From the IMG/VR virus record IMGVR_UViG_3300043450_000376: a stretch of DNA of 64,000 nucleotides; one strand, given 5' to 3'. Shown piece by piece: positions 4,325-63,229 of this stretch (the stretch's first letter is position 1; every line of letters starts with the position of its first letter). The notes under the pieces are model-generated. The model was not told where the DNA came from. It did not search any database and worked only from the letters and a program-made list of their open reading frames with translations. The position numbers and the translations under genes were made by a program. The stretch is from a virus (lineage: Duplodnaviria; Caudoviricetes).

Positions 4325-5125
4325 ATGCCAGAAGGACCTGAGTGCAGACGAGTATATGAAGGTTTAAGAAACCACTGCATTAATAAAAAATTAGTTAACG
4401 TAGAAATACTTGGAGGGCGCTTCCTAAAGACTCCCCCAAGCGGCCTGGAGACCCTGGGGCTGCCCCTGGAGGTAGTTGGAGGCGGAGTTAAGGGTAAATT
4501 CATCTGGCTGGAATTAGAAGAGGGCATGTCTATCTGGATTACTCTAGGTATGAGCGGCTTTTGGTCAATCTATGAAAAGCCGCATTCTCATATTAAATTA
4601 GTATTTGATGATGGCCTAGAGCTATTTTTTGTTGACCAGCGCCGATTTGGTACGCTTAAATTTGCAACTAAGGTTGAATTGGATGCAAAATTAAAAACCC
4701 TAGGGGTTGATGCACTCAATGACCAAAGTGCAACTATGTATGATACAATAAGATCGTTTGAACGGGTTCCAAACAAAACTATAGTTGAGGCACTAATGGA
4801 TCAGCGCCTTTTTGCAGGAATAGGAAACTATATTAAATGCGAAATGTTATACAGAACAAAGATCTCCCCACATAGATTAGTTAGAGACCTTACTGATAAT
4901 GACGTTTCTTTATTATGGGATTATGCTAAGCTAATAAGTAGGTCATCCTATAAGCAAGGTGGAGCAAGTATTAGAAACTATCAACAGGTGACAGGCGAAA
5001 CTGGCGACTTTGTGTTTGAATTTGAAGTATATGGCAAACGGGAAGATCCTCATGGAAATACAGTAATTAGAGAAAAAACAGCAGACGGCAGAACTACTCA
5101 TTGGGTACCAAGCCTACAACAATAA
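4325..5125 (+). CDS. mutM: formamidopyrimidine-DNA glycosylase / endonuclease VIII (Fpg/Nei family)
   Basis: N-terminal catalytic PEGPE, KGKFIW, LGMSG, DQRRFG, H2TH LMDQ..FAGIGNYIKCE. Confidence 0.92.
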   Translation: MPEGPECRRVYEGLRNHCINKKLVNVEILGGRFLKTPPSGLETLGLPLEVVGGGVKGKFIWLELEEGMSIWITLGMSGFWSIYEKPHSHIKLVFDDGLELFFVDQRRFGTLKFATKVELDAKLKTLGVDALNDQSATMYDTIRSFERVPNKTIVEALMDQRLFAGIGNYIKCEMLYRTKISPHRLVRDLTDNDVSLLWDYAKLISRSSYKQGGASIRNYQQVTGETGDFVFEFEVYGKREDPHGNTVIREKTADGRTTHWVPSLQQ

Positions 5126-10750: not shown

Positions 10751-10937
10751 TTACCTAATTCGGGTTCCAAATGAGTCCCTGGCAGTCACCAGAGTAGCCC
10801 TGGAGCAGCTAGAGAGTCTAATTGAATACGAATACCCAGGTGCCATTTTTACAGATCTTTTGGTATTATTAGATATAGAAAGGCTAGACCAATTGGTCTC
10901 GGCCATTTCTGGTATCACTATATTACAAGGATTATGA
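10728..10937 (+). CDS. hypothetical protein
   Basis: overlaps both neighbours in the same direction. Confidence 0.4.
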   Translation: MMRTMTTSYLIRVPNESLAVTRVALEQLESLIEYEYPGAIFTDLLVLLDIERLDQLVSAISGITILQGL

Positions 10938-11911
10938 GAAAAAATACAATTAAAGTACACTACACACCTAAACAGGTCCTAGCAAAGGACTCCGGTGGTA
11001 ATTTTAGCAAGTCTCCGCTAAAACCAAAGAGGTTACTTGAAAATTTTGAGGCAGAGGGATTAGGCGAACATTTTGATATTGTTGAAGATTTTACACCATA
11101 TACAAATAAAGATTTTAAGATTGCCCACACTAAAAGATATGTAAATTCATTCTTTAGTGGACAAAAAGGCTGTGAATCAAATGGACTCGACTGGTCTACT
11201 CAATTTGCAGAGTCAGTTCGCTATACTAATGCATCACTGCACGCTGCAATACGGGGTTCTATTGTAGAACCAGATCAGGTTCATTTTAGTCCAACTAGCG
11301 GATTTCACCATGCTCGACCAGATGGAGGCAGCGGCTTCTGTACATTTAGTGGTCAAGTTATTGCATCAATTAAAATCCTACAAGAGTTTGGATTAAGCGG
11401 AGCTTATTTAGATCTAGACGGACACTTTGGAAATTCGGTTGAAGATGCTAGGGCATTTGTTAAAGATTTAGATAAAGCTGTTCCTTCTGAATTTAATATT
11501 AATCCAATTGGCAGAGGTACTTCATATATTAATAATCTTAAATGGAATCTACAAAAATTAGAAGAGGCTATCTTAACTGGCCAAATTGGATATGTTGTAT
11601 GGTGTCATGGTGCAGACTCGCATGAATGGGATGATTTAGGATTTCAGTGTTCAACTGAACAATGGTTAGAGTGCTCTACAATTTTTTGGAATTGGGTTAA
11701 ATCCATGGATAAAAAGTTAGGCAGGCCTCTTCCAGTAAGTTGCGCTCTATTTGGAGGATATCGTAAAGACGATTATCAAAGTGTCTTGAATTTGCATACA
11801 GCGGACTTTGTTGAGTGCATGAATATTTTGCTTAACCTTGAGGTTAAATATACTATAAAGGTACAGCCAAAATATTCATATTCGCATGGTAAAGAAGAAT
11901 ACGTCCGATGA
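10934..11911 (+). CDS. Zn-dependent histone-deacetylase-family amidohydrolase (HDAC/AcuC-like)
   Basis: SGFHHA, GFCTF, LDLDGHFGNS, GADSH..DDLG, FGGY. Confidence 0.88.
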   Translation: MRKNTIKVHYTPKQVLAKDSGGNFSKSPLKPKRLLENFEAEGLGEHFDIVEDFTPYTNKDFKIAHTKRYVNSFFSGQKGCESNGLDWSTQFAESVRYTNASLHAAIRGSIVEPDQVHFSPTSGFHHARPDGGSGFCTFSGQVIASIKILQEFGLSGAYLDLDGHFGNSVEDARAFVKDLDKAVPSEFNINPIGRGTSYINNLKWNLQKLEEAILTGQIGYVVWCHGADSHEWDDLGFQCSTEQWLECSTIFWNWVKSMDKKLGRPLPVSCALFGGYRKDDYQSVLNLHTADFVECMNILLNLEVKYTIKVQPKYSYSHGKEEYVR

Positions 11912-24996: not shown

Positions 24997-25062
24997 ATGC
25001 AGTATTCCTGGACCCCGCCGAGTGCGCCCGCGCAAGGGGGTTGGGGTTAAGAGTGGTGAGGC

Positions 25063-25635
25063 CTAGCGCCTACCCCAGCGCCAACTACGACCATGGGCAT
25101 CAAGTGCAACTTGGTACATAAATCTGGCCAGGGCTGTACCCGGCTCAGTTAAGCCATCGAATATAACCTGACGGTTAGAGGTTGGTTGGCCAATTCGACC
25201 AGAGTTACGTAGAGAACCTGGGAAAATCCAGTATTCAAACCTAGAGCTCAATGAGGTCTCCATCTCCATTTGACGCTGCCACTGCTGCAGCTCCCCTTTT
25301 ATCTTTGCATAGCGTGCCTCTTGAGCAGGGCTTAAGCCCTTAGGCAAGTCAGCAGTAAAGAGAATTTCGGCTGCATCAGCTGGGCTAATTTTAAGCACGA
25401 CTGTACCATTATCCGCCTGGCGGCCTGTTGCCCAATCCCGCCACTCTAGCCCAAGATCCGCAAATAGGGTCTTGAGGGCGGCAACAAATTCGCTACGATA
25501 CTGTTTATCCAAACCAAGCTCCTGTAATTTCTGTTTAAAATCCTCGGGTTCTATTAAGCCTAGTGCCAACATGCGCCTAGCTGCGGCAATCTCTTCAGCG
25601 GATTCAAATAGGCGGTATGGTTTTAAATATTTCAT
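25063..25635 (-). CDS. late protein with leader and RLxxLGL-like motifs
   Basis: MKYLKPYRLFE|S..RRMLALGL, KLQELGL. Confidence 0.65.
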   Translation of the reverse strand: MKYLKPYRLFESAEEIAAARRMLALGLIEPEDFKQKLQELGLDKQYRSEFVAALKTLFADLGLEWRDWATGRQADNGTVVLKISPADAAEILFTADLPKGLSPAQEARYAKIKGELQQWQRQMEMETSLSSRFEYWIFPGSLRNSGRIGQPTSNRQVIFDGLTEPGTALARFMYQVALDAHGRSWRWGRR

Positions 25636-25637
25636 AG

Positions 25638-26288
25638 TTAGTTGGTTTCTTCTATTTCAACACCGATAAATGGTACAAAGACCTTGTCCATCCACTTGAT
25701 AATTTCGTCTGCTATCCACCTACTCTGTGCAACCGTGCTTGGTATCCATTGATACCCACCAATTGGTCTTTCCCAGAAATAGTCAGGTACCGTAATAAGC
25801 TGACTACTATCAAGTCGACCGGCTGCCTTTTGAAAACGAATTACCAATCTGCAATTCCATACCTTATAACTATAGTTAACGCCCTTATCAATATAGACAC
25901 TATAATAAGGATCGCGCCCGCCTTTACCCTGCTGGTGGATCCTGATTTCGTCAAATGCCAGTTTTTCTACATCTAAATTAGGGTAGTGACTGGCTAACCG
26001 CTCCTTAACTAGCAATACTACATCATCTTTAATCTTGCTCCAATCCTCTAGATCAATCATACCTAGATCAACAAGTCTAACATATTGGGTCCAGAAAGGA
26101 TCCGCAGATTCGGTAATAGCAGGGGTATTGTCATGCCAGCACTTGTGACATAGATAGGGATTGGTTTCGCCGCCATCCAAGCCATCCGCTAGATTCCAAC
26201 TCCAGTTACAGCTTTTACCACTGCAGTGCACAACACCAGACTGGACCTCTTCGGTAATAAAATCTTTGTATAGTCTGATATGTTTCAT
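25638..26288 (-). CDS. late protein with leader, Zn-ribbon and RLxxLG motif
   Basis: MKHIRLYKDFITE|E; CSGKSC..YLCHKC; ITE|S..VRLVDLGM. Confidence 0.65.
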   Translation of the reverse strand: MKHIRLYKDFITEEVQSGVVHCSGKSCNWSWNLADGLDGGETNPYLCHKCWHDNTPAITESADPFWTQYVRLVDLGMIDLEDWSKIKDDVVLLVKERLASHYPNLDVEKLAFDEIRIHQQGKGGRDPYYSVYIDKGVNYSYKVWNCRLVIRFQKAAGRLDSSQLITVPDYFWERPIGGYQWIPSTVAQSRWIADEIIKWMDKVFVPFIGVEIEETN

Positions 26289-26291
26289 AGA

Positions 26292-26717
26292 TTAATATCT
26301 ACTTGTTTTGATGCCTTTACCTGCTGTACTAAACTTAGCTAGGGTTGCTGTATCGGATTTAGCAAGACTCTGCTGTATTGCTGAAATAACTACCTTAACC
26401 ATTTCTTGTAGATCTGGAGTTGCATCGTCTACAATTGGATCTGCACCTAACCAGTCTGGATCAGGAGTTACCCCGTCCCTCTTGTCTTCAGCATAGATAT
26501 CAGTAACCTTAATAACTACCATGGCAGTTATCTTATCTCCAGTTGCCTTTTCTAAGCTGGTCTTAAGTTTTTCACGGTTAATATCTAGATAACCTCTAAC
26601 TGCTGACCAGTCTGTTACCCCCTCGATAGGTTCCACGGTACCACCTAATTGAGTAGCCAATTGATCTAAGGCTACTGCCTCTACTAGATACTCACTAAAT
26701 CTTTTAATCCTGTTCAT
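26292..26717 (-). CDS. late protein with capsid-targeting-like leader
   Basis: likely start MNRIKRFSEYLVE|A at 26717; ATAAATA at 26743-26749. Confidence 0.65.
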   Translation of the reverse strand: MNRIKRFSEYLVEAVALDQLATQLGGTVEPIEGVTDWSAVRGYLDINREKLKTSLEKATGDKITAMVVIKVTDIYAEDKRDGVTPDPDWLGADPIVDDATPDLQEMVKVVISAIQQSLAKSDTATLAKFSTAGKGIKTSRY

Positions 26718-26759
26718 AATAATATTGTTATAGTTATAAAGATATTTATTAGCAAAAGA

Positions 26760-27127
26760 CCTGGACAACAGCCCCCAAGCCAGGGGAAATTCGCCACCAG
26801 TAGAAATGCCCCGAGGAAAAGCCCCTGGATAAATGAATCTAGGCAAAAAGGTCTGGACCACTAGCCAAGCCGGGGAGACAAGAGAAAAAAGTAAAAATGC
26901 TTGCTTCCCCCTGGCTACAAAAACTTATACCAGGGATAGGCCCCGGGGCAGCCCCTGGACAGCTCCCCAGGGTCACCCAGGAGCAGTCTGGACCTGTCCT
27001 GGTGTACCCCAGGAGTCACCTGGAGACAGCTGCCAGGACGGTCCCCAGGGCAGCCAGGAGCAGTACCAGACCGGTCCTGGGTAGGTATTATATAGCCTCC
27101 TGGGCTAGCCTGACCAGCAGCTCCAGG
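26760..27127. repeat. GC-rich non-coding array of 17 CCWGG sites
   Basis: CCWGG at 26760,26780,26824,26910,26930,26954,26967,26977,26998,27009,27019,27033,27045,27054,27076,27099,27123. Confidence 0.85.
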
Positions 27128-27222
27128 CAGGTCTCCAGCCGGTCCAGCAGGAGGTATTGCACTAGCCCTGTACCTACTCTGCGCAGGTAAACCTATACCC
27201 CTAGCCTAGTATAATAACTATA

Positions 27223-27528
27223 ATGCTAAACCAAAAGGAGATGCCTGAATACTTATCTACACTAATTAAAGACCGAATCCTTACTGGGCTGGAAGGAGTA
27301 GGTCGAGACCAGCAGGCGATACGCCACTGTCTAGGCAAGATAGTCGAAGACCTAGGTAAAACAGCAGGCGAAGAGGATTGGAGTGCAGAGTATCTTGAAT
27401 ACTTATTACATGCTCTATACCATGCCTGTATTACTGCGCTCGACGTGGCGGTTGCTAGGGAAGAATATGAATGGGCTGCTGAGTTATTCTATCGGGTTAA
27501 ACGCGAAGCAGCTATAAACAAACTATAA
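27223..27528 (+). CDS. small protein with UVR-like motif
   Basis: AVAREEYEWAAEL; after AGTATAAT. Confidence 0.55.
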   Translation: MLNQKEMPEYLSTLIKDRILTGLEGVGRDQQAIRHCLGKIVEDLGKTAGEEDWSAEYLEYLLHALYHACITALDVAVAREEYEWAAELFYRVKREAAINKL

Positions 27529-27531
27529 CAT

Positions 27532-27717
27532 ATGCAGATACAAGACTTTAAACCGGGAGATACTATCCAATGGTTACAGAAATTCGAAGAGCTAGAAGCC
27601 CCTATCACGGGTATTGTAGAAGTAGTAGCACCAGACGTGCTAACTGTGCGCGATAACCTTGGCCAGTTTTGGCAGGTAACAGCTGAAGATAGCCCGACTA
27701 GCTGGGATAATTGTTAA
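27532..27717 (+). CDS. hypothetical SH3-like small protein
   Basis: FKPGDTIQW..GIVEVV..LTV. Confidence 0.5.
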   Translation: MQIQDFKPGDTIQWLQKFEELEAPITGIVEVVAPDVLTVRDNLGQFWQVTAEDSPTSWDNC

Positions 27718-27758
27718 TAACTTTATTTTTGGGTGTCAAGTTAATTGGTTATATTTAC
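27711..27758 (+). promoter_or_regulatory. early promoter, copy 1 (TGTTAATAAC box 38 bp upstream of TATATTTAC)
   Basis: TTGTTAATAACTTT..GTGTCAAG..TATATTTAC. Confidence 0.75.
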
Positions 27759-27779
27759 TCTATAACTAAATGATATACG

Positions 27780-28082
27780 ATGATACACAAAGAATTTAAA
27801 TTAACCGTTACCGAACCTATTCGCGAAGAGTCAGGTCGTAGTGTAAAGCCTGTCCACTGGAGTATTGGGCAAGAGTTAACCCTTAGCGAGGCCGAGTTTA
27901 GCAGGCTAAGAGGTGGCGAAGTTGTCGAGAGATTTACCAACGAAGGGAGACTCAGATTTGATAAGCACCATTTTGCAAATGGGGTCAGGGTAATTGAAAT
28001 AGAAATTACCGAGAGCGAGGTAAAGCTTGGTAATACTAGAGGTCGTAAAGAGGTAAAGCTATTTTTCAACAGCAGCATATGA
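27780..28082 (+). CDS. hypothetical early protein
   Basis: directly follows promoter. Confidence 0.6.
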   Translation: MIHKEFKLTVTEPIREESGRSVKPVHWSIGQELTLSEAEFSRLRGGEVVERFTNEGRLRFDKHHFANGVRVIEIEITESEVKLGNTRGRKEVKLFFNSSI

Positions 28083-28187
28083 CCAGCCTCTTGTCAACTA
28101 TCGAGAAATTGGGTATATTAGCCCTAAAGATAATCGTGTTCTTTATAGTCGCGAAAGTATTATTTAAAATCTTAAACTGGATATAAT

Positions 28188-28415
28188 ATGTCAACTAAAA
28201 CAAAAGAAGCAATTTACAAACTATTTGTCGGTGTCTGTAGCTTTATGCTCGAAGCCTTTTTTCTTAAGGTAATATGGAATAGCATTGGCCCTGATCAAGG
28301 TCTACACGAAATTACCTGGCTCTCCGCAATGGGCTGGATGGTTATCGGCAAGACAGTAATGGGAACTGGTGCAATTAGGAGTGCTATCGCAGATGCCAAT
28401 AAGCCAAAGGGGTAG
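28188..28415 (+). CDS. small membrane protein
   Basis: two hydrophobic segments. Confidence 0.55.
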   Translation: MSTKTKEAIYKLFVGVCSFMLEAFFLKVIWNSIGPDQGLHEITWLSAMGWMVIGKTVMGTGAIRSAIADANKPKG

Positions 28416-28439
28416 GTATAATAATCTAAACAATATAAA

Positions 28440-28748
28440 ATGTCTATGTCTATAAAGAAAGCATTTGCAGCATTTACTGCAAAATTTAAAACCAAACCGA
28501 CTACAATGTCAAACACAGCAAACCAAACCAAGATAGGCATGACCTATCGCAAATTGCCTTACACAGCAAAATTAGCAGTTATTAACTCTCGTCTACGTCA
28601 AGGCGACTTAGTGAAAGTAGCTGCACGTACTGGATTCTCGCCTAACTACACAAGTGAAGTTATCGGTGGCTTGTACCAAAATGCAAAGATTGTAAACAAA
28701 GCTTTCGATATGACCCGCGGTCGTATCAAGAATTCTCAACTTGTCTAA
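28440..28748 (+). CDS. HTH DNA-binding protein
   Basis: LVKVAARTGFSPNYTSEVIGG helix-turn-helix-like; followed by terminator. Confidence 0.55.
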   Translation: MSMSIKKAFAAFTAKFKTKPTTMSNTANQTKIGMTYRKLPYTAKLAVINSRLRQGDLVKVAARTGFSPNYTSEVIGGLYQNAKIVNKAFDMTRGRIKNSQLV

Positions 28749-28770
28749 GTAGAGAATCTCTTAAGCCTTG

Positions 28771-28799
28771 AACCTGCCCCGTAAGGCAGGTTTTTTTTT
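28771..28799 (+). terminator. intrinsic terminator
   Basis: AACCTGCC-CCGTAA-GGCAGGTT + T run. Confidence 0.8.
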
Positions 28800-28800
28800 G

Positions 28801-28852
28801 AAAAATAAGTAATAAAAAGTTTTTTAGTGTCAACTTAATTGTTTATATTTAC
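28801..28852 (+). promoter_or_regulatory. early promoter (no upstream box)
   Basis: AAAAATAA..TTTTTTAGTGTCAACTTAATTGTTTATATTTAC. Confidence 0.7.
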
Positions 28853-28880
28853 ATATCATTAATAACCTAAACAATCTATT

Positions 28881-29090
28881 ATGAAAGCATCTATTAAATT
28901 TTTATTGGGTTCAGTCTTATTCTTATCAATTGCGTTCTTAACTGCGAGCGGTCATGTCGGAAAGGTTATCCCATTTGCAGGAACATTAAATGAAATGGGA
29001 TTCTTTATGTTAAGCGGAGCAATGGGAATACTATACGCGATTGCTGGATTCTCAAGAGAATCTAGTGATACTAAAGGGAGTATAAGATAA
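28881..29090 (+). CDS. small membrane protein
   Basis: two TM helices. Confidence 0.6.
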   Translation: MKASIKFLLGSVLFLSIAFLTASGHVGKVIPFAGTLNEMGFFMLSGAMGILYAIAGFSRESSDTKGSIR

Positions 29091-42734: not shown

Positions 42735-43367
42735 CTAGATACCAAGCTCCTTGGCGCTAGCGATTATATCGACCAGCTCCTCCTTGATTTCGTCGATATA
42801 TTCCTGTCGGCCAACCTTCGGCTGGATTATATGTATATCTACACCATGATAAATCAGTACCCGTTCAAGTATATCCCAAGCAAGGAATCTGGCTAGCCTG
42901 TCCGGGGTCTCGATAATCAGGGTGCTGACCTTTTTACGTACAACCAGATCCATAATTCGGTTCAAGCCCGGTGCATTATCATCTAGCCTGTTCGCGCGCC
43001 TAACCTCTTGGATTACCTCATCGACCCTGATACCCCGGGCTGTGCAGTAACCCTGTACCCGGTCTAGCTGGCTACGCAGCCTGCTCGTACTGGATATTCC
43101 GGCTGCCCCAGAGTCTGGAATGGGGCTCGTTCTACAATATATTATTACTAGCCTGTCTTGAGGTACTCTACTCCCTAGTAGATATAGTATCTGGTCTGAG
43201 TCTATATAGACCCTACCATTAACCCGGTTCTTCATAGGTGTTATCTTACCCTGTTCTATATAGCGACCTAGAGTTCGGGTAGTTACACCTAGTCTCTGCG
43301 CGGCTTCGCGACTACTTATTAATTCGCCAGTAGGCAAGGTCTGCGGTATCGTAGGTTCTATCTTCAT
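42735..43367 (-). CDS. tnpA: IS607-type serine recombinase (MerR-like HTH + resolvase catalytic domain), no adjacent tnpB
   Basis: SSREAAQRLGVTTRTL.RY, YCRTS nucleophile, DRLARF; GATAAATAA at 43374-43382. Confidence 0.8.
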   Translation of the reverse strand: MKIEPTIPQTLPTGELISSREAAQRLGVTTRTLGRYIEQGKITPMKNRVNGRVYIDSDQILYLLGSRVPQDRLVIIYCRTSPIPDSGAAGISSTSRLRSQLDRVQGYCTARGIRVDEVIQEVRRANRLDDNAPGLNRIMDLVVRKKVSTLIIETPDRLARFLAWDILERVLIYHGVDIHIIQPKVGRQEYIDEIKEELVDIIASAKELGI

Positions 43368-56423: not shown

Positions 56424-58259
56424 ATGGCATCAACAAAAGAAATTAGTAAGAAATACCAGCTGCTTGATGAGATCGAGCACGTCCTAAAAAGACCTGGCAT
56501 GTATATTGGTTCAACTAAACCTCATACAAGTCAGGAGTGGATCCTTAAAGATGGTATGTATGAGAAAGAGGAATTGACTTACAATCCCGGCTTTCTAAAG
56601 TTATTTGATGAGATTATCTCAAACTCAGTCGACGAGCATAAACGCTCAGGTAAAATTAACCAGATCAAAGTTGTTATTAAAGACAACCTTATTTCAGTTT
56701 GGGATAATGGCGGAATTCCAGTAGTTCAGCATCCAGAACATAAAGTCTGGATTCCCGAATTAATCTTTTCTAACCTTAGAGCTGGCTCTAATTTTAATGA
56801 TGATGAAGGTAGAATTGTAGCTGGAACAAATGGAGTTGGTGCATCACTAGTTAATATCTTTTCTAATAAGTTTAAGATTGAAACAGCTGATGGTAAAAAG
56901 AGACTAGTTCAGCTTTTTACCAAAAACATGTCAGTTAAGGGTGTTGCAAAGATTTCTGCATCAACTCAAGGTTTTACTGAAATTTCATATGAAACAGATT
57001 TAAGCAGATTTGAAATGAAATCTCTTGATGAAGCTCATATTAAAATGATGCGTAAACGTGTTATTGATATTGCAGCAGCAAATCCGGGTCTTAAGCTAGA
57101 ATTTAATGGCGAGAAATTTAGATTTAAAAATTTCAAAGAATACGTTGAGCTCTATGTTCAAGCTCCAGTTTGGGAAAAGAGCGAGCATTGGGAATTTGCA
57201 GTTGGCCATTCAAAAGATGGCTATCAATCTATTTCATTTGTTAATTCAATTGAAACTAAAGATGGCGGTACCCATGAAAACTATATCTTAAATCAGGTAA
57301 TTGAAGACCTAAGAGTCTTAATTAAAAAGAAACATAAGGTTGAAGTTAAACCTTCGGAAATTCGTAATCATGTTTTCTTATTCATAAACTGTACAGTAAT
57401 TAATCCGGCGTTTTCTTCTCAAACCAAAGAAAAACTAATTACTGAACCTAAAGAATTTGGAACAGCCCATACTGTTTCAGACAAATTTGCTAAAGCAGTT
57501 TTTGCATCAGAAATAATTGAATCATTATTAGATTGGATTCAACAAAAGAAACAGGCTGAAGAGAGAGCTGAGTTACGTAAACTTAATAAATCTCTTGCAA
57601 CAACTAAAGTTCTTAAGTTAATTGATGCTAAAGGCAAGGACAGAAGCAAGTGTTCGCTTGGAATATTTGAAGGTATGTCTGCCCTATCAGCAGTTCGTAA
57701 GTTTAGAGATCCTCAGGTATTTGGAGCATTTCCACTTAAAGGTAAATTTCTTAATGTAAGTGAGATGAAGAATACTGAAGTTATTAAGAACGAAGAAGTA
57801 GTTCAGCTGATGGCATCGTTAGGAATTAAATTAGGAGAAGATCCCAAGGAAATGCGTTATAATAAAATCCTAATCTATACTGATGCTGATCCAGATGGAG
57901 ACTCGATTGCAGGTTTACTAATTAACTTTTTTAATAGGTATTGGCCAGAATTAGTAACAGAAGGCAAGGTCTTTAAAGTAATGACGCCGCTTGTTGTTGC
58001 AAAGAAAGGTAAAGAAATCATGCCATTTTATACAGCCGATTCTTATTTAAAATGGGAAGCTGAAACTAAAATGACAGGCTGGACAGTTGAATACAAAAAA
58101 GGTCTTGCAGCACTTGAAGATGCAGAGTATCGAGAGATTATTCATAACCCAAATTTAGTACAATTAACTAACGATAAACAGGCAGCGAAATCACTAGACG
58201 ACTGGTTCGGAAATGATTCAGCTCCTCGAAAAGCACGTCTTTTACAATTTTCAATATGA
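56424..58259 (+). CDS. type II DNA topoisomerase, ATPase/TOPRIM subunit (GyrB/ParE; T4 gp39+gp60-like)
   Basis: EHVLKRPGMYIGS, DEIISNSVDE, GTNGVGA, FEGMSA, PLKGK, TDADPDG. Confidence 0.95.
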   Translation: MASTKEISKKYQLLDEIEHVLKRPGMYIGSTKPHTSQEWILKDGMYEKEELTYNPGFLKLFDEIISNSVDEHKRSGKINQIKVVIKDNLISVWDNGGIPVVQHPEHKVWIPELIFSNLRAGSNFNDDEGRIVAGTNGVGASLVNIFSNKFKIETADGKKRLVQLFTKNMSVKGVAKISASTQGFTEISYETDLSRFEMKSLDEAHIKMMRKRVIDIAAANPGLKLEFNGEKFRFKNFKEYVELYVQAPVWEKSEHWEFAVGHSKDGYQSISFVNSIETKDGGTHENYILNQVIEDLRVLIKKKHKVEVKPSEIRNHVFLFINCTVINPAFSSQTKEKLITEPKEFGTAHTVSDKFAKAVFASEIIESLLDWIQQKKQAEERAELRKLNKSLATTKVLKLIDAKGKDRSKCSLGIFEGMSALSAVRKFRDPQVFGAFPLKGKFLNVSEMKNTEVIKNEEVVQLMASLGIKLGEDPKEMRYNKILIYTDADPDGDSIAGLLINFFNRYWPELVTEGKVFKVMTPLVVAKKGKEIMPFYTADSYLKWEAETKMTGWTVEYKKGLAALEDAEYREIIHNPNLVQLTNDKQAAKSLDDWFGNDSAPRKARLLQFSI

Positions 58260-59611
58260 TGATTAAAGCAGAATTAAAATCAGTATCTCAATTTCTAGAT
58301 CAGGACTATGCAGCCTATGGTATGTACACTCTTGAAAACAGAGCAATTCCCTCAGTTATAGATGGATTTAAGCCAACTCAGCGTAAAATTATTTTTATTG
58401 CAGATAAAGTTTGGAAAGGTTCTAATGATAAACCACTAAAGATATTTCAGCTAGGCGGCCGAATTGCAGCAGATGCACACTATCATCATGGAGATGGATC
58501 TCTTAATGGAGCTATTATTGGAATGGCTCAATCATTTAAAAACTCCCTTCCGTTATTGGATGAGGTTGGCCAATTTGGATCAATGCGATCTCCCGAAGCA
58601 GGTGCTGCTCGTTATATTTCAACCAAACTTACTCCAAATTTTAGATTACTCTATAAAGATTTTGAACTATTAACTTCGCAAATCGAAGAAGGTAATGAAA
58701 TCGAACCTAAATATTTCTTACCAATTATTCCAACTGTCCTCCTAAATGGAAGTTCAGGTATTGCAGTAGGTTTTGCTACAAATATTTTGAACAGAAATCC
58801 TGCTCAATTAATAGAAGCTTGCACTAAAGTATTAGATGGTAAAAAGATTGGAGAATTACTTCCATGGTTTAAGGATTTCAATGGGCCAATCTCTAGAATT
58901 GGAGATAACCAATATCAATTTAAAGGAGTTGCTCGAGTAGTTAATACAACAACGGTTGAAATTACCGAGTTACCTCCATCAATGACATTCCAAAAATATG
59001 AGAACCATTTAAATAATTTACAAGAGCGTGGAGTTATTTTCTCATATGAAGATAACTGTTCAAACGGAATTTCATATACCCTTAAATTTCAACGAGCTAG
59101 CCTTGCTGACTTGATTGCAAAAGATAAATTAGAGACAACTCTTAAATTAGTAGAAACTGATAGTGAGAATTTAACATGTCTAGATGAAAGAGGTAAACTT
59201 AAAATATTTTCAAGTCTACCAGAATTAGTTGATTACTTTGTTAAATTTCGTTTAGCGTATTATGATAAACGCAAGGCTTACTTAATTGATACATTAGAAA
59301 AAGATTTAGTGTATCTTTCAAATAGAGCCAGATTTATTAAGATGATTATTGATGGTAAACTTAAATTAGGTAATCGCCCAAAACAAGAAATCGTTTTAGA
59401 ATTAGATGAGCTTAAGTTTGACCGTATCAATTCAGGCTTTGACTATTTGCTAAGCATGCAAATTCAAACTTTAACTAAGGAGAAATACGAGCAGTTAGTC
59501 AATGAAGTTAAAGAAAAATCTGCAGAATTGGTAACTGTAAAAAAGACTGCACCAATTGATATGTATAGAACCGATCTTGCAGAATTAAAGAAAAATCTTA
59601 AGACTAAATAA
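58256..59611 (+). CDS. type II DNA topoisomerase, breakage-reunion subunit (GyrA/ParC; T4 gp52-like)
   Basis: RAIPSVIDGFKPTQRK, YHHGD.S, GQFGS, AARYI catalytic Tyr, NGSSGIAVGFAT. Confidence 0.95.
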   Translation: MMIKAELKSVSQFLDQDYAAYGMYTLENRAIPSVIDGFKPTQRKIIFIADKVWKGSNDKPLKIFQLGGRIAADAHYHHGDGSLNGAIIGMAQSFKNSLPLLDEVGQFGSMRSPEAGAARYISTKLTPNFRLLYKDFELLTSQIEEGNEIEPKYFLPIIPTVLLNGSSGIAVGFATNILNRNPAQLIEACTKVLDGKKIGELLPWFKDFNGPISRIGDNQYQFKGVARVVNTTTVEITELPPSMTFQKYENHLNNLQERGVIFSYEDNCSNGISYTLKFQRASLADLIAKDKLETTLKLVETDSENLTCLDERGKLKIFSSLPELVDYFVKFRLAYYDKRKAYLIDTLEKDLVYLSNRARFIKMIIDGKLKLGNRPKQEIVLELDELKFDRINSGFDYLLSMQIQTLTKEKYEQLVNEVKEKSAELVTVKKTAPIDMYRTDLAELKKNLKTK

Positions 59612-62260: not shown

Positions 62261-63229
62261 ATGAAACAATATAAACTTTTCTCAATTGACGGTCGTCCAC
62301 TCGCAAACGAAATTTGCGAACATCTTTCAACCCTAACTGACTCTGATATTAGAGTCGGTAAATTTAAAATTGATCAATTCTCAGATGGAGAATTTAGTCC
62401 ACAGTTTTTAGAATCAATTAGAGACAAGTCTGTATTTTTAACAACTACTTTAACTAGTTCAGATGCTATTATTAAATTAGTACTTTCAATTGATGCAGCA
62501 AAGCGAGCATCTGCATCTGAAATTATTATAGTACTGCCATACCTTGCATATTCGCGACAAGATCGAAGAGAAGGCCATCGTGGTTCAATCGGCGGAAAGG
62601 CGATTGCCGATCTTATTAAAAACGCAGGTGCTGATAAAGCAATTCTATTTGATCTACACTCAGAACAGATTCAGGGTTTCTTTGATATGCCAGTTGAACA
62701 CATTCCTGGCTGGGTTGCATTTACTGATTATGTAAAAGACTTGGATCCAACTTGTGATTGGACAGTATGCTCGCCAGATGCCGGCGGTGTTAAACGAGCA
62801 AACCGTTTTTATCAGCACTTTGTTAAAACACATGAGACGGCAACCTTTTCAATGTTATCTAAACTAAGAGACAAGCCAAATTCAATTGAACGAATGGATC
62901 TGATTGGAGATGTTAATGGTCGATGCGTAATCTTAATTGATGATATGGTTGATACTGGCGGAACTCTTCTACTTGCAGCTAAACTGCTAAAAGAAGCAGG
63001 CGCGCTAAAGGTTCATGCAATCTGTACGCATGGAGTTTTATCTGGCCCTGCATATGACCGACTAAGCGGAGAAAATGGTCAATATCTAGATTCGTTAGTT
63101 ATTAGTACTTCAATTCCATCTAATTTTCACGATAAAATAAAAACCGTAAGCTGTGCTCAGCCCATTGCTAAAACTATTTTTGCAATGACTAGATCTGTAT
63201 CTGTAGCACAAACTCTATTACCACTATGA
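62261..63229 (+). CDS. prs: ribose-phosphate pyrophosphokinase (PRPP synthetase family)
   Basis: FSDGE, PYLAYSRQDRR, DLHSEQIQGFF, SPDAGG, DDMVDTGGT, THGVLSG. Confidence 0.9.
   Translation: MKQYKLFSIDGRPLANEICEHLSTLTDSDIRVGKFKIDQFSDGEFSPQFLESIRDKSVFLTTTLTSSDAIIKLVLSIDAAKRASASEIIIVLPYLAYSRQDRREGHRGSIGGKAIADLIKNAGADKAILFDLHSEQIQGFFDMPVEHIPGWVAFTDYVKDLDPTCDWTVCSPDAGGVKRANRFYQHFVKTHETATFSMLSKLRDKPNSIERMDLIGDVNGRCVILIDDMVDTGGTLLLAAKLLKEAGALKVHAICTHGVLSGPAYDRLSGENGQYLDSLVISTSIPSNFHDKIKTVSCAQPIAKTIFAMTRSVSVAQTLLPL

Follow-up and report, generated by a model that had tools for sequence, protein, structure and literature searches.

The 64,000-nucleotide stretch of the Caudoviricetes genome held in IMG/VR as IMGVR_UViG_3300043450_000376 (the window) contains a 505-bp gap where its minus-strand late genes meet its plus-strand early genes, bounded by the start codon of a minus-strand gene (ATG 26717) and that of a plus-strand gene (ATG 27223). 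Most of this gap is taken up by an array of the pentamer CCWGG (W = A or T), with 17 copies between positions 26760 and 27127 (from 26760 to 27123). The original prediction, made from the letters alone, had described 17 sites in 368 bp at a late/early strand switch, with spacings of 10, 21, 11 and 10 bp between the core sites; the site positions, the spacings and the map of open reading frames (ORFs) all agree with it. About 1.1 sites are expected in 368 bp at the 58% G+C of the array core (0.29^4 x 0.42 x 364; the window as a whole has 37.5% G+C). The window contains 86 CCWGG in total, no 368-bp stretch outside the array holds more than 4 of them, and its remaining G+C-rich islands show no comparable CCWGG enrichment. 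A single relative was identified in IMG/VR (G001), a 141.9-kb contig rated 55% complete, from which a genome of ~260 kb is estimated; its array reaches 22 sites per 400 bp, and nowhere else in its 142 kb does the count exceed 4. The same array was recovered from many independent samples (JGI, ENA, and Logan assemblies), which confirms a genuine element and rules out an assembly artefact.

A total of 20 distinct close relatives were collected by protein look-ups and one metagenome word scan of the JGI, ENA, and Logan assemblies. All are from freshwater, as judged from the runs holding the window, and all share a gap of ~510 bp with 16–24 CCWGG, despite identities of the 141-amino-acid (aa) late protein down to 53%. 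Distant homologues of the 101-aa first early protein (37–49% identical) led to three further lineages, each of which carries the array. The lineage of L037 and L038 has 15–16 CCWGG (nearly all CCTGG in L037), L036 has 8 in the 120 bp held by its contig, and lineage D (L039–L046) has 11 CCWGG and 8 CCSGG in the same slots, with CCTGY also mixed in. The spacers are wholly different between the distant lineages; the sites and their spacing are retained. The carriers are a whole clade of freshwater jumbo phages of ~250–290 kb. The L036, L037, L038, and ERZ27275580 contigs end 70–300 bp upstream of the 101-aa homologue, inside the array, and the array seems to cause assembly breaks in such short contigs of distant relatives. 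GenBank phages gave no DNA match to positions 25000–29000, and no paper describing such an array was found in the literature.

The sites follow a regular pitch that is longer than the helical repeat of relaxed DNA. A Rayleigh scan of the site positions gave a best period of 11.20 bp for the window (R = 0.80, reached by 1 of 2000 random placements), 11.25 bp for L013 (R = 0.82) and L002 (R = 0.84), 11.40 bp for L037 (R = 0.92), 11.45 bp for L036 (R = 0.94), and 11.30 bp for L039 (R = 0.79); across these six sequences, 0–15 of 2000 random placements matched the best R. At 10.5 bp, R was 0.05 in the window and ranged from 0.05 to 0.32 over the tested sequences. Pooled inter-site distances fall into clusters at ~11, 22, 33, 44, 56, and 67 bp with nothing in between. 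Four of the five indels within the array are of whole units (10, 11, 12, or 23 nt); the 23-nt deletion removes exactly two units and the 12-nt insertion carries a CCWGG of its own. With 12–16 slots at a period of 11.2–11.45 bp, the array has more than the three phased repeats of one word required of an iteron-type origin. The suggestion that the core sites lie on one helical face therefore holds for the phased spacing but not for relaxed DNA, since the period is 11.2–11.45 bp and not 10.5 bp: 14 sites spaced 11.3 bp apart on relaxed B-DNA would trace one turn of a spiral round the helix, and they would share a face only if the DNA were underwound or followed a superhelical path. The flanks are asymmetric between the strands (C-rich sequence lies 5' and purine sequence 3' of a site, and G-Y-A-G often follows it), so that the units are oriented and iteron-like. 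The statement that the array is not a tandem repeat is accordingly correct in that Tandem Repeats Finder detects almost nothing, but the asymmetric flanks make it a loose direct repeat.

Substitutions were counted by parsimony on a FastTree phylogeny of 21 sequences, for the 19 sites that 14 or more of them share. Per column, CC and GG changed 0.21 times and the spacers 1.42 times, a roughly sevenfold difference, and the centre letter of the sites changed 1.21 times, compared with 0.40 for the centre of equally conserved control windows of five columns chosen by the same rule. The resolved centre changes are exchanges of A and T in 18 out of 21 cases; in the spacers, such exchanges account for 18% of changes involving A or T. 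Centre switches occurred independently at eight sites with no complementary switches elsewhere. As they are uncompensated, and as L037 consists almost entirely of CCTGG, they do not serve CCAGG:CCUGG pairing, and CCWGG appears to be read as DNA, or at least not as the partner in a helix. Identity was compared with the third codon positions of the adjacent 101-aa gene for the pairs of the window with L002, L017, L019, L020, and L024: in these pairs the array is 74–79% identical to the window, its right-hand extension 65–71%, the 85-bp block to its left 92–95%, and the third codon positions 49–63%. The slow CC and GG letters, the A/T centre exchanges, the retained period, and the unit-sized indels show selection on the word and on its phase, and its position by the promoter is under selection as well.

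The block had been described as non-coding, and the relatives bear this out. The CCWGG sites occupy all three reading frames in the window, and indels of 1, 10, 11, 12, and 23 nt separate the array blocks of the relatives. One minus-strand frame is open for 78–96 codons in 19 out of 21 sequences; its variable columns are distributed 8/19/19 over codon positions 1/2/3, it contains a stop in L023, and the centre-letter switches would exchange Arg and Trp. Coding, including a TAG read-through of an ORF beginning at ATG 26897, was rejected after six-frame reading and tests for conserved ORFs and codon-position bias. No Rfam family matched the window at gathering scores, with mere noise at E values up to 5 in 26500–27400, and no tRNA or tmRNA was found.

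Table 1. Features of the late/early gap of the window and of the early genes discussed in the text.
Feature	Position	Strand	Remarks
Late gene, 141 aa	26292..26717	-	ORF; left bound of the gap; homologues adjoin the same gap
Hairpin with T-run, terminator-like	26748..26781	-	Immediately upstream of the late promoter (ATAAATA type) of the 141-aa gene
Outlying CCWGG sites 26760, 26780, 26824	26760..26828		Left, more variable part
85-bp block	26867..26952		Function unexplained; contains sites 26910 and 26930
Core array, 12 slots	26954..27080		Ten CCWGG (26954, 26967, 26977, 26998, 27009, 27019, 27033, 27045, 27054, 27076) and two degenerate slots (TCTGG 26987, CCAGA 27066)
AT island TAGGTATTATATAG	27081..27094	+	9/10 match to the TAG(G)TATAAT extended -10 word
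Array continuation	27099..27170		CCTGG 27099, CCTGA 27109, CCAGG 27123, then degenerate CCWG words
Early promoter (predicted)	27188..27215	+	-35-like TAAACC 27188-27193, 16-nt spacer, TAG + TATAAT 27207-27215
First early gene, 101 aa	27223..27528	+	Acidic, no family; homologues mark the array in every lineage
Basic 102-aa helix-turn-helix (HTH)-like protein	28440..28748	+	Own TAGGTATAAT promoter at 28413; candidate reader

The array is flanked and interrupted by elements that are conserved to different degrees (table 1). At the left edge, a hairpin followed by TTTT(T)G is present on the minus strand in all 21 sequences, with different stems in L021–L024, and the minus-strand form is the more stable one in 20 of the 21. 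The outlying sites are retained in 19 (26760) and 21 (26780) of the 21 sequences, and site 26824 is variable; this left part also contains small hairpins. The 85-bp block consists, in order, of a purine/A-rich tract, GCTTGCTTCCCCCTGGCTAC, an A-run, and TATACCAGGGATAG...CCCCGGGG. It is 92–100% identical in relatives whose neighbouring gene is 49–63% identical at third codon positions, and it is almost unchanged in L037 (L037:1–90), where the flanking protein is 37% identical, so the alignments point to a block more conserved than any nearby gene or protein. A double change from A:T to C:G in L010 and plus-strand G.U pairs are consistent with a possible hairpin within it. No exact copy of the block exists in 185,579 prokaryote genomes, and its exact words occur in IMG/VR in no genome beyond the one known relative. 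The AT island (TAGGTATTAT) fills two array slots in phase and is restricted to the family of the window; by its match to the extended -10 word it may act as a promoter, with transcription starting from it. In relatives, indels of 10, 11, and 12 nt, each the size of one unit, occur in the right-hand continuation of the array.

The array leads into what is predicted to be the first early promoter. In the window this promoter reads TAAACC-N16-TAGTATAAT, with ATG 27223 lying 7 nt past the -10 element, and AAACC-N16/17-TATAnT precedes the 101-aa homologue in all four lineages. The gap between TATAAT and the start codon is 7–11 nt in three lineages (window 27207–27225; L037:261–302; L036:80–123), so that the mRNA of the 101-aa gene probably has no leader or almost none. 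The array continues directly into the promoter in L036 and L037. A CCWGG lies within the promoter spacer itself, and thus overlaps the -35/-10 region as in an operator array, in L036, in L037, and in nine of the 20 close relatives; the corresponding slot of the window reads CCTAG. Lineage D has four copies of (A/T)TGTCTA at intervals of ~12 bp between the array and the early promoter (L039:5885–5940), and this second phased iteron set suggests that the region upstream of the early promoter is a modular operator zone. The word TAG(G)TATAAT occurs at eight plus-strand sites of the window (4299, 19083, 27207, 28413, 39722, 40892, 42398, and 61196), often with (A/G)GCAG(T) 17–22 nt upstream, and looks like the early promoter class of the phage. 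The word GAGCAG also recurs in the spacers of the CCWGG array.

Four early proteins are common to lineages A and D: the acidic 101-aa family (42% identical), a 79-aa protein (32%), a sigma factor (62%), whose gene follows the array downstream at a distance of ~5 kb, also in lineage D, and the basic protein encoded at 28440–28748 (65% over a 78-aa core). The last of these accompanies the array in lineages A, B, and D, with a core identity of 91% within A, 76% in B, and 65% in D, and is encoded 0.6–1.2 kb downstream of the array (1.2 kb in the window). Its middle part reads like an HTH, and one member has been named an IscR-family regulator by JGI. Sub-threshold matches to the Pfam families HTH_26, HTH_31, Rrf2, and HTH_3 were obtained, the best PDB profile matches are Cro-type antirepressors (E = 0.2–0.3), and its neighbours in the ESM Atlas belong to HTH families. 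Structure models reached a pLDDT of 40 for the full 102 aa (8 sequences) and of 56 for an all-helical 79-aa core (20 sequences); a Foldseek search with this low-confidence core model returned no match at E <= 0.001, and its non-significant list consists mostly of XRE/Cro domains. Together, these sub-threshold and low-confidence matches weakly suggest an HTH fold, and the protein is a reasonable first one to test as the predicted reader, no more. The 100-aa product of 27780–28082 is a distant paralogue of the 102-aa protein (25% identical, with SRLRxGxVV...TRGR in both), and the HTH-like family may thus have two members per genome.

Taken together, the array is well supported as a selected element and most likely serves a DNA-binding protein as a docking track, that is, as a phased array of binding sites; a device of restriction or methylation is unlikely by comparison. 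The more specific reading that is put forward here, tentatively and as something short of probable, is that the sites form an operator, or the track of a filament, that is bound cooperatively over the first early promoter. Each CCWGG would be read by one of many copies of a single protein, which would recognise CC and GG specifically and the centre as A or T, and these copies would bind side by side at a pitch of 11.3 bp along a single face of DNA that is underwound or gently wrapped. A cooperative filament would then extend from about -250 into the -35 and -10 elements of the first early promoter, and the occupied track would most likely shut this promoter and the embedded TAGGTATTAT promoter, turning early transcription off. 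Repression is the sign of effect suggested by the sites in the promoter spacer. The most plausible reader would be the HTH-like early protein of 28440–28748, and a host or co-injected protein is possible. A protein-loading platform had been proposed at the outset; this general idea agrees with the selection on word and phase and with the single copy of the array, but the specific forms it was given (origin, packaging or injection-stop signal) are unsupported, as detailed below.

Several observations weigh against such an operator. The reader is a guess and the binding putative, and HTH proteins usually read sites longer than 5 bp. The spacers remain G+C-rich while their sequence drifts, which reading of CCWGG alone cannot explain, and the window itself has CCTAG in place of CCWGG in the promoter spacer. 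This model also leaves unexplained the 85-bp block, whose conservation far exceeds that of the array, and the left-edge hairpin with its T-run hints that minus-strand transcripts cross the array. Array words are also found in the metatranscriptome assemblies of two studies, which may reflect an RNA role or DNA carry-over. In run X15 a single 852-nt contig spans 26505–27356, and in X16/X17 (identical strain) the contigs cover the flanking genes and 27123 onwards but not 26672–27122. The metatranscriptomes are available as contigs, in which strand and ends are unreadable, DNA carry-over is possible and an uncovered part proves nothing, and these runs were counted neither for nor against transcription. 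A further proposal, which is unlikely, is that the array represents a cytosine-methylation counterpart of sequestration by GATC and SeqA, or a new filament that holds ~150 bp at 11.3 bp per turn; its occupancy, by methylation or by a phage protein, would store or release about one turn of twist at the early promoter and so time the early-to-late switch.

The competing explanations each account for part of these data. An iteron-type origin, in which a phage initiator would bind the CCWGG units and the A-rich purine tract or the AT island would melt, is improbable. The array is a single-copy, phased, direct-repeat-like element located where the genes change orientation and the GC skew switches, it has A/T-rich segments inside and beside it, and the phage is distantly T4-like by its topoisomerase II subunits; T4 origins combine a promoter with an unwinding element. 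However, no DnaA box (TTWTNCACA) is present within 7 kb of the array and no initiator gene was recognised adjacent to it, the neighbouring small proteins being without family, so that the origin named in the original prediction is not supported. Moreover, the AT island is ~12 bp long and absent from L036, L037, and L039, and the change of gene orientation alone explains the skew switch. A role in packaging, as a pac signal wrapped about a ring of small terminase, or in stopping injection would agree with an array that is unique in the genome and whose 12–16 phased sites resemble the subunit number of such rings (8–12 subunits), but it is very unlikely: the terminase large-subunit (TerL) gene of G001 lies at 52.7–53.3 kb and the array at 2.4–2.9 kb, ~50 kb apart, and every lineage has the array linked to the early promoter. 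The same low probability applies to a gyrase site, at which ~130 bp of periodically deformable DNA would wrap the enzyme and set the supercoiling at the early promoter. The 127-bp core with its 11.2-bp period recalls the gyrase motif of E. coli, which covers 130 bp with phased G/C content, and phage Mu has a strong gyrase site (PMC6379681); that motif is degenerate and based on composition, however, and here a pentamer is conserved letter by letter with an A/T centre. A function at the RNA level, either as a structured transcript over the 85-bp block and the array or with CCWGG as the sites of an RNA-binding protein in a CsrB-type sponge, is improbable. A G+C-rich island in an A+T-rich genome, both strands of which fold better than shuffled sequences (z = -4.7 and -4.2), would be expected of a structured RNA, and the L010 double change and G.U pairs in the 85-bp block, the terminator-like minus-strand hairpin, the array words in RNA libraries, and the reading C(A/T)GGA on the plus strand at about half of the sites point the same way. 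Against this, there is no Rfam match, almost no covariation appears in consensus folds of 10 and 20 sequences or in an all-against-all scan of both strands, and the centre switches break the predicted CCAGG:CCUGG pairs. The conserved element is CCWGG and not GGA, palindrome-rich sequence alone explains the low folding energies, and a CsrB/RsmZ sponge is at odds with GGA at only about half of the sites and with the lack of a plus-strand terminator. A sliding comparison of plus- and minus-strand folding energies was dropped because the strands differ in purine and pyrimidine content, which confounds it.

The identity of the word invites explanations from DNA modification. As a methylation sensor, the array would be methylated at CCWGG by the host and read by a SeqA-like protein that recognises unmethylated or hemimethylated sites and would thereby set the timing of early expression or of replication. 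Enzymes of the Dcm/EcoRII/PspGI family have precisely this specificity, CCWGG with either A or T at the centre, and SeqA requires GATC pairs phased by whole helical turns, in clusters that mark oriC and P1 oriR. The array shares with those clusters a methylase-type palindrome that is clustered and helically phased at one unique control locus, but the word is another one, no methylase or SeqA-like gene was found, and the locus is linked to a promoter and not to a recognised origin; the Dcm-type enzymes, for their part, act on substrate sites genome-wide, unlike one array fixed in phase and place. The 142 kb of G001 (~55% of the genome) gave no match to PF00145, PF01555, PF09019, or PF09217, although EcoRII positive controls were silent too, and the methylase motif xPPY or PCQ+ENV is absent from all ORFs of at least 120 aa in the window and G001 (~178 kb together). 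The CCWGG methylase for which the original prediction had suggested a search in the phage was not found, by families in G001 or by motifs in the window and G001, nor was any C5, N4, or N6 methylase or EcoRII domain in the parts searched. Outside the array, CCWGG occurs near its expected frequency, with Markov-based observed/expected ratios of 0.64 (CCAGG) and 0.94 (CCTGG) in the window and of 1.10 and 0.97 in G001, and lineage D has CCSGG and CCTGY in the same slots. A sensor is therefore not supported and quite unlikely. Depletion of CCWGG outside the array is likewise missing in the window and G001, with all ratios between 0.64 and 1.10, which removes the rationale for a decoy (sponge) that would absorb a CCWGG-specific restriction enzyme. 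The identity of the word is all that favours such a decoy; it gives the strict phase and the promoter linkage no role, EcoRII-type enzymes are activated and not blocked by clustered sites, and the idea is hardly credible. No more credible is a remnant or cryptic gene for a collagen-like protein, in which CCW-GGN would encode Pro-Gly in the minus-strand frame that is open in most sequences. The period is 11 nt and not 9, the sites are spread over all three frames, upstream a 1-nt indel changes the frame, and the codon-position counts, the stop and the Arg/Trp exchanges given above are not those of a coding frame.

Known phased arrays offer partial parallels. The pho boxes of OmpR/PhoB-type regulators are 7-bp direct repeats every 11 bp that overlap the -35 element in 2–4 copies and activate. 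They share with the present array short oriented words, an 11-bp pitch, a position upstream of and into a promoter, and the binding of many copies of one protein, but here the consecutive slots number 12–16, the word is a palindrome of 5 bp whose centre may be A or T, and no gene for a response regulator was seen. The iterons of R1 parC are 11 bp long. In the R1 parC/ParR system, a promoter lies between two sets of five phased iterons, and one small protein coats these iterons and represses the promoter (PMC2241845). A partition centromere of this type has ~10 iterons of 10–11 bp around the operon promoter; the present array corresponds to this in that it embeds or abuts promoter-like words in phase, among them the AT island; the candidate reader, however, looks like an HTH and not a ribbon-helix-helix protein, and the phage appears lytic and T4-like, without sign of plasmid maintenance. 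No ParM (PF06406) match was obtained in G001, where the control genomes were silent as well, and no early ORF is long enough; a search for MotA (PF09158) also gave no match, with the control genomes again silent. Phi29 p6 forms a nucleoprotein filament on no fixed word, recognising bendability at a 12/24-bp period instead. The p4/p6 switch resembles the present case as a complex on a divergent early/late control region with a period above 10.5 bp and wrapped DNA, but the word is fixed here and the sequences are unrelated. For the pho-box, parC/ParR, SeqA and Dcm/EcoRII families alike, the gene-level features are missing at this locus or cannot be shown.

Other genes of the window add to the picture of the phage. 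T4-type topoisomerase II large and medium subunits are encoded at 56424–59611, with best matches in uncultured huge phages of 634–735 kb. A UvdE UV-endonuclease (768–1727, E = 2e-58) and a complete Fpg/Nei glycosylase with three Pfam domains (4325–5125) are present; three CCTGG at 4444–4469 lie inside the Fpg/Nei gene and are unrelated to the array. Further products are a histone-deacetylase-family protein (10934–11911), a phosphoribosyl pyrophosphate synthetase (62261–63229), and a serine recombinase with a MerR-type HTH (42735–43367).

Early gene control in uncultured jumbo phages is almost unknown, and at this locus the grammar of a cis-element can be read from its evolution: a palindrome, 12–16 slots, a pitch of 11.3 bp, and a position by the promoter. 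The array also illustrates that clustered methylase or restriction sites need not relate to restriction. If a filament forms on it, it would be an unusually long operator built on a pentamer, and would provide a clean system for the in vivo selection of helical phase at 11.3 as against 10.5 bp.

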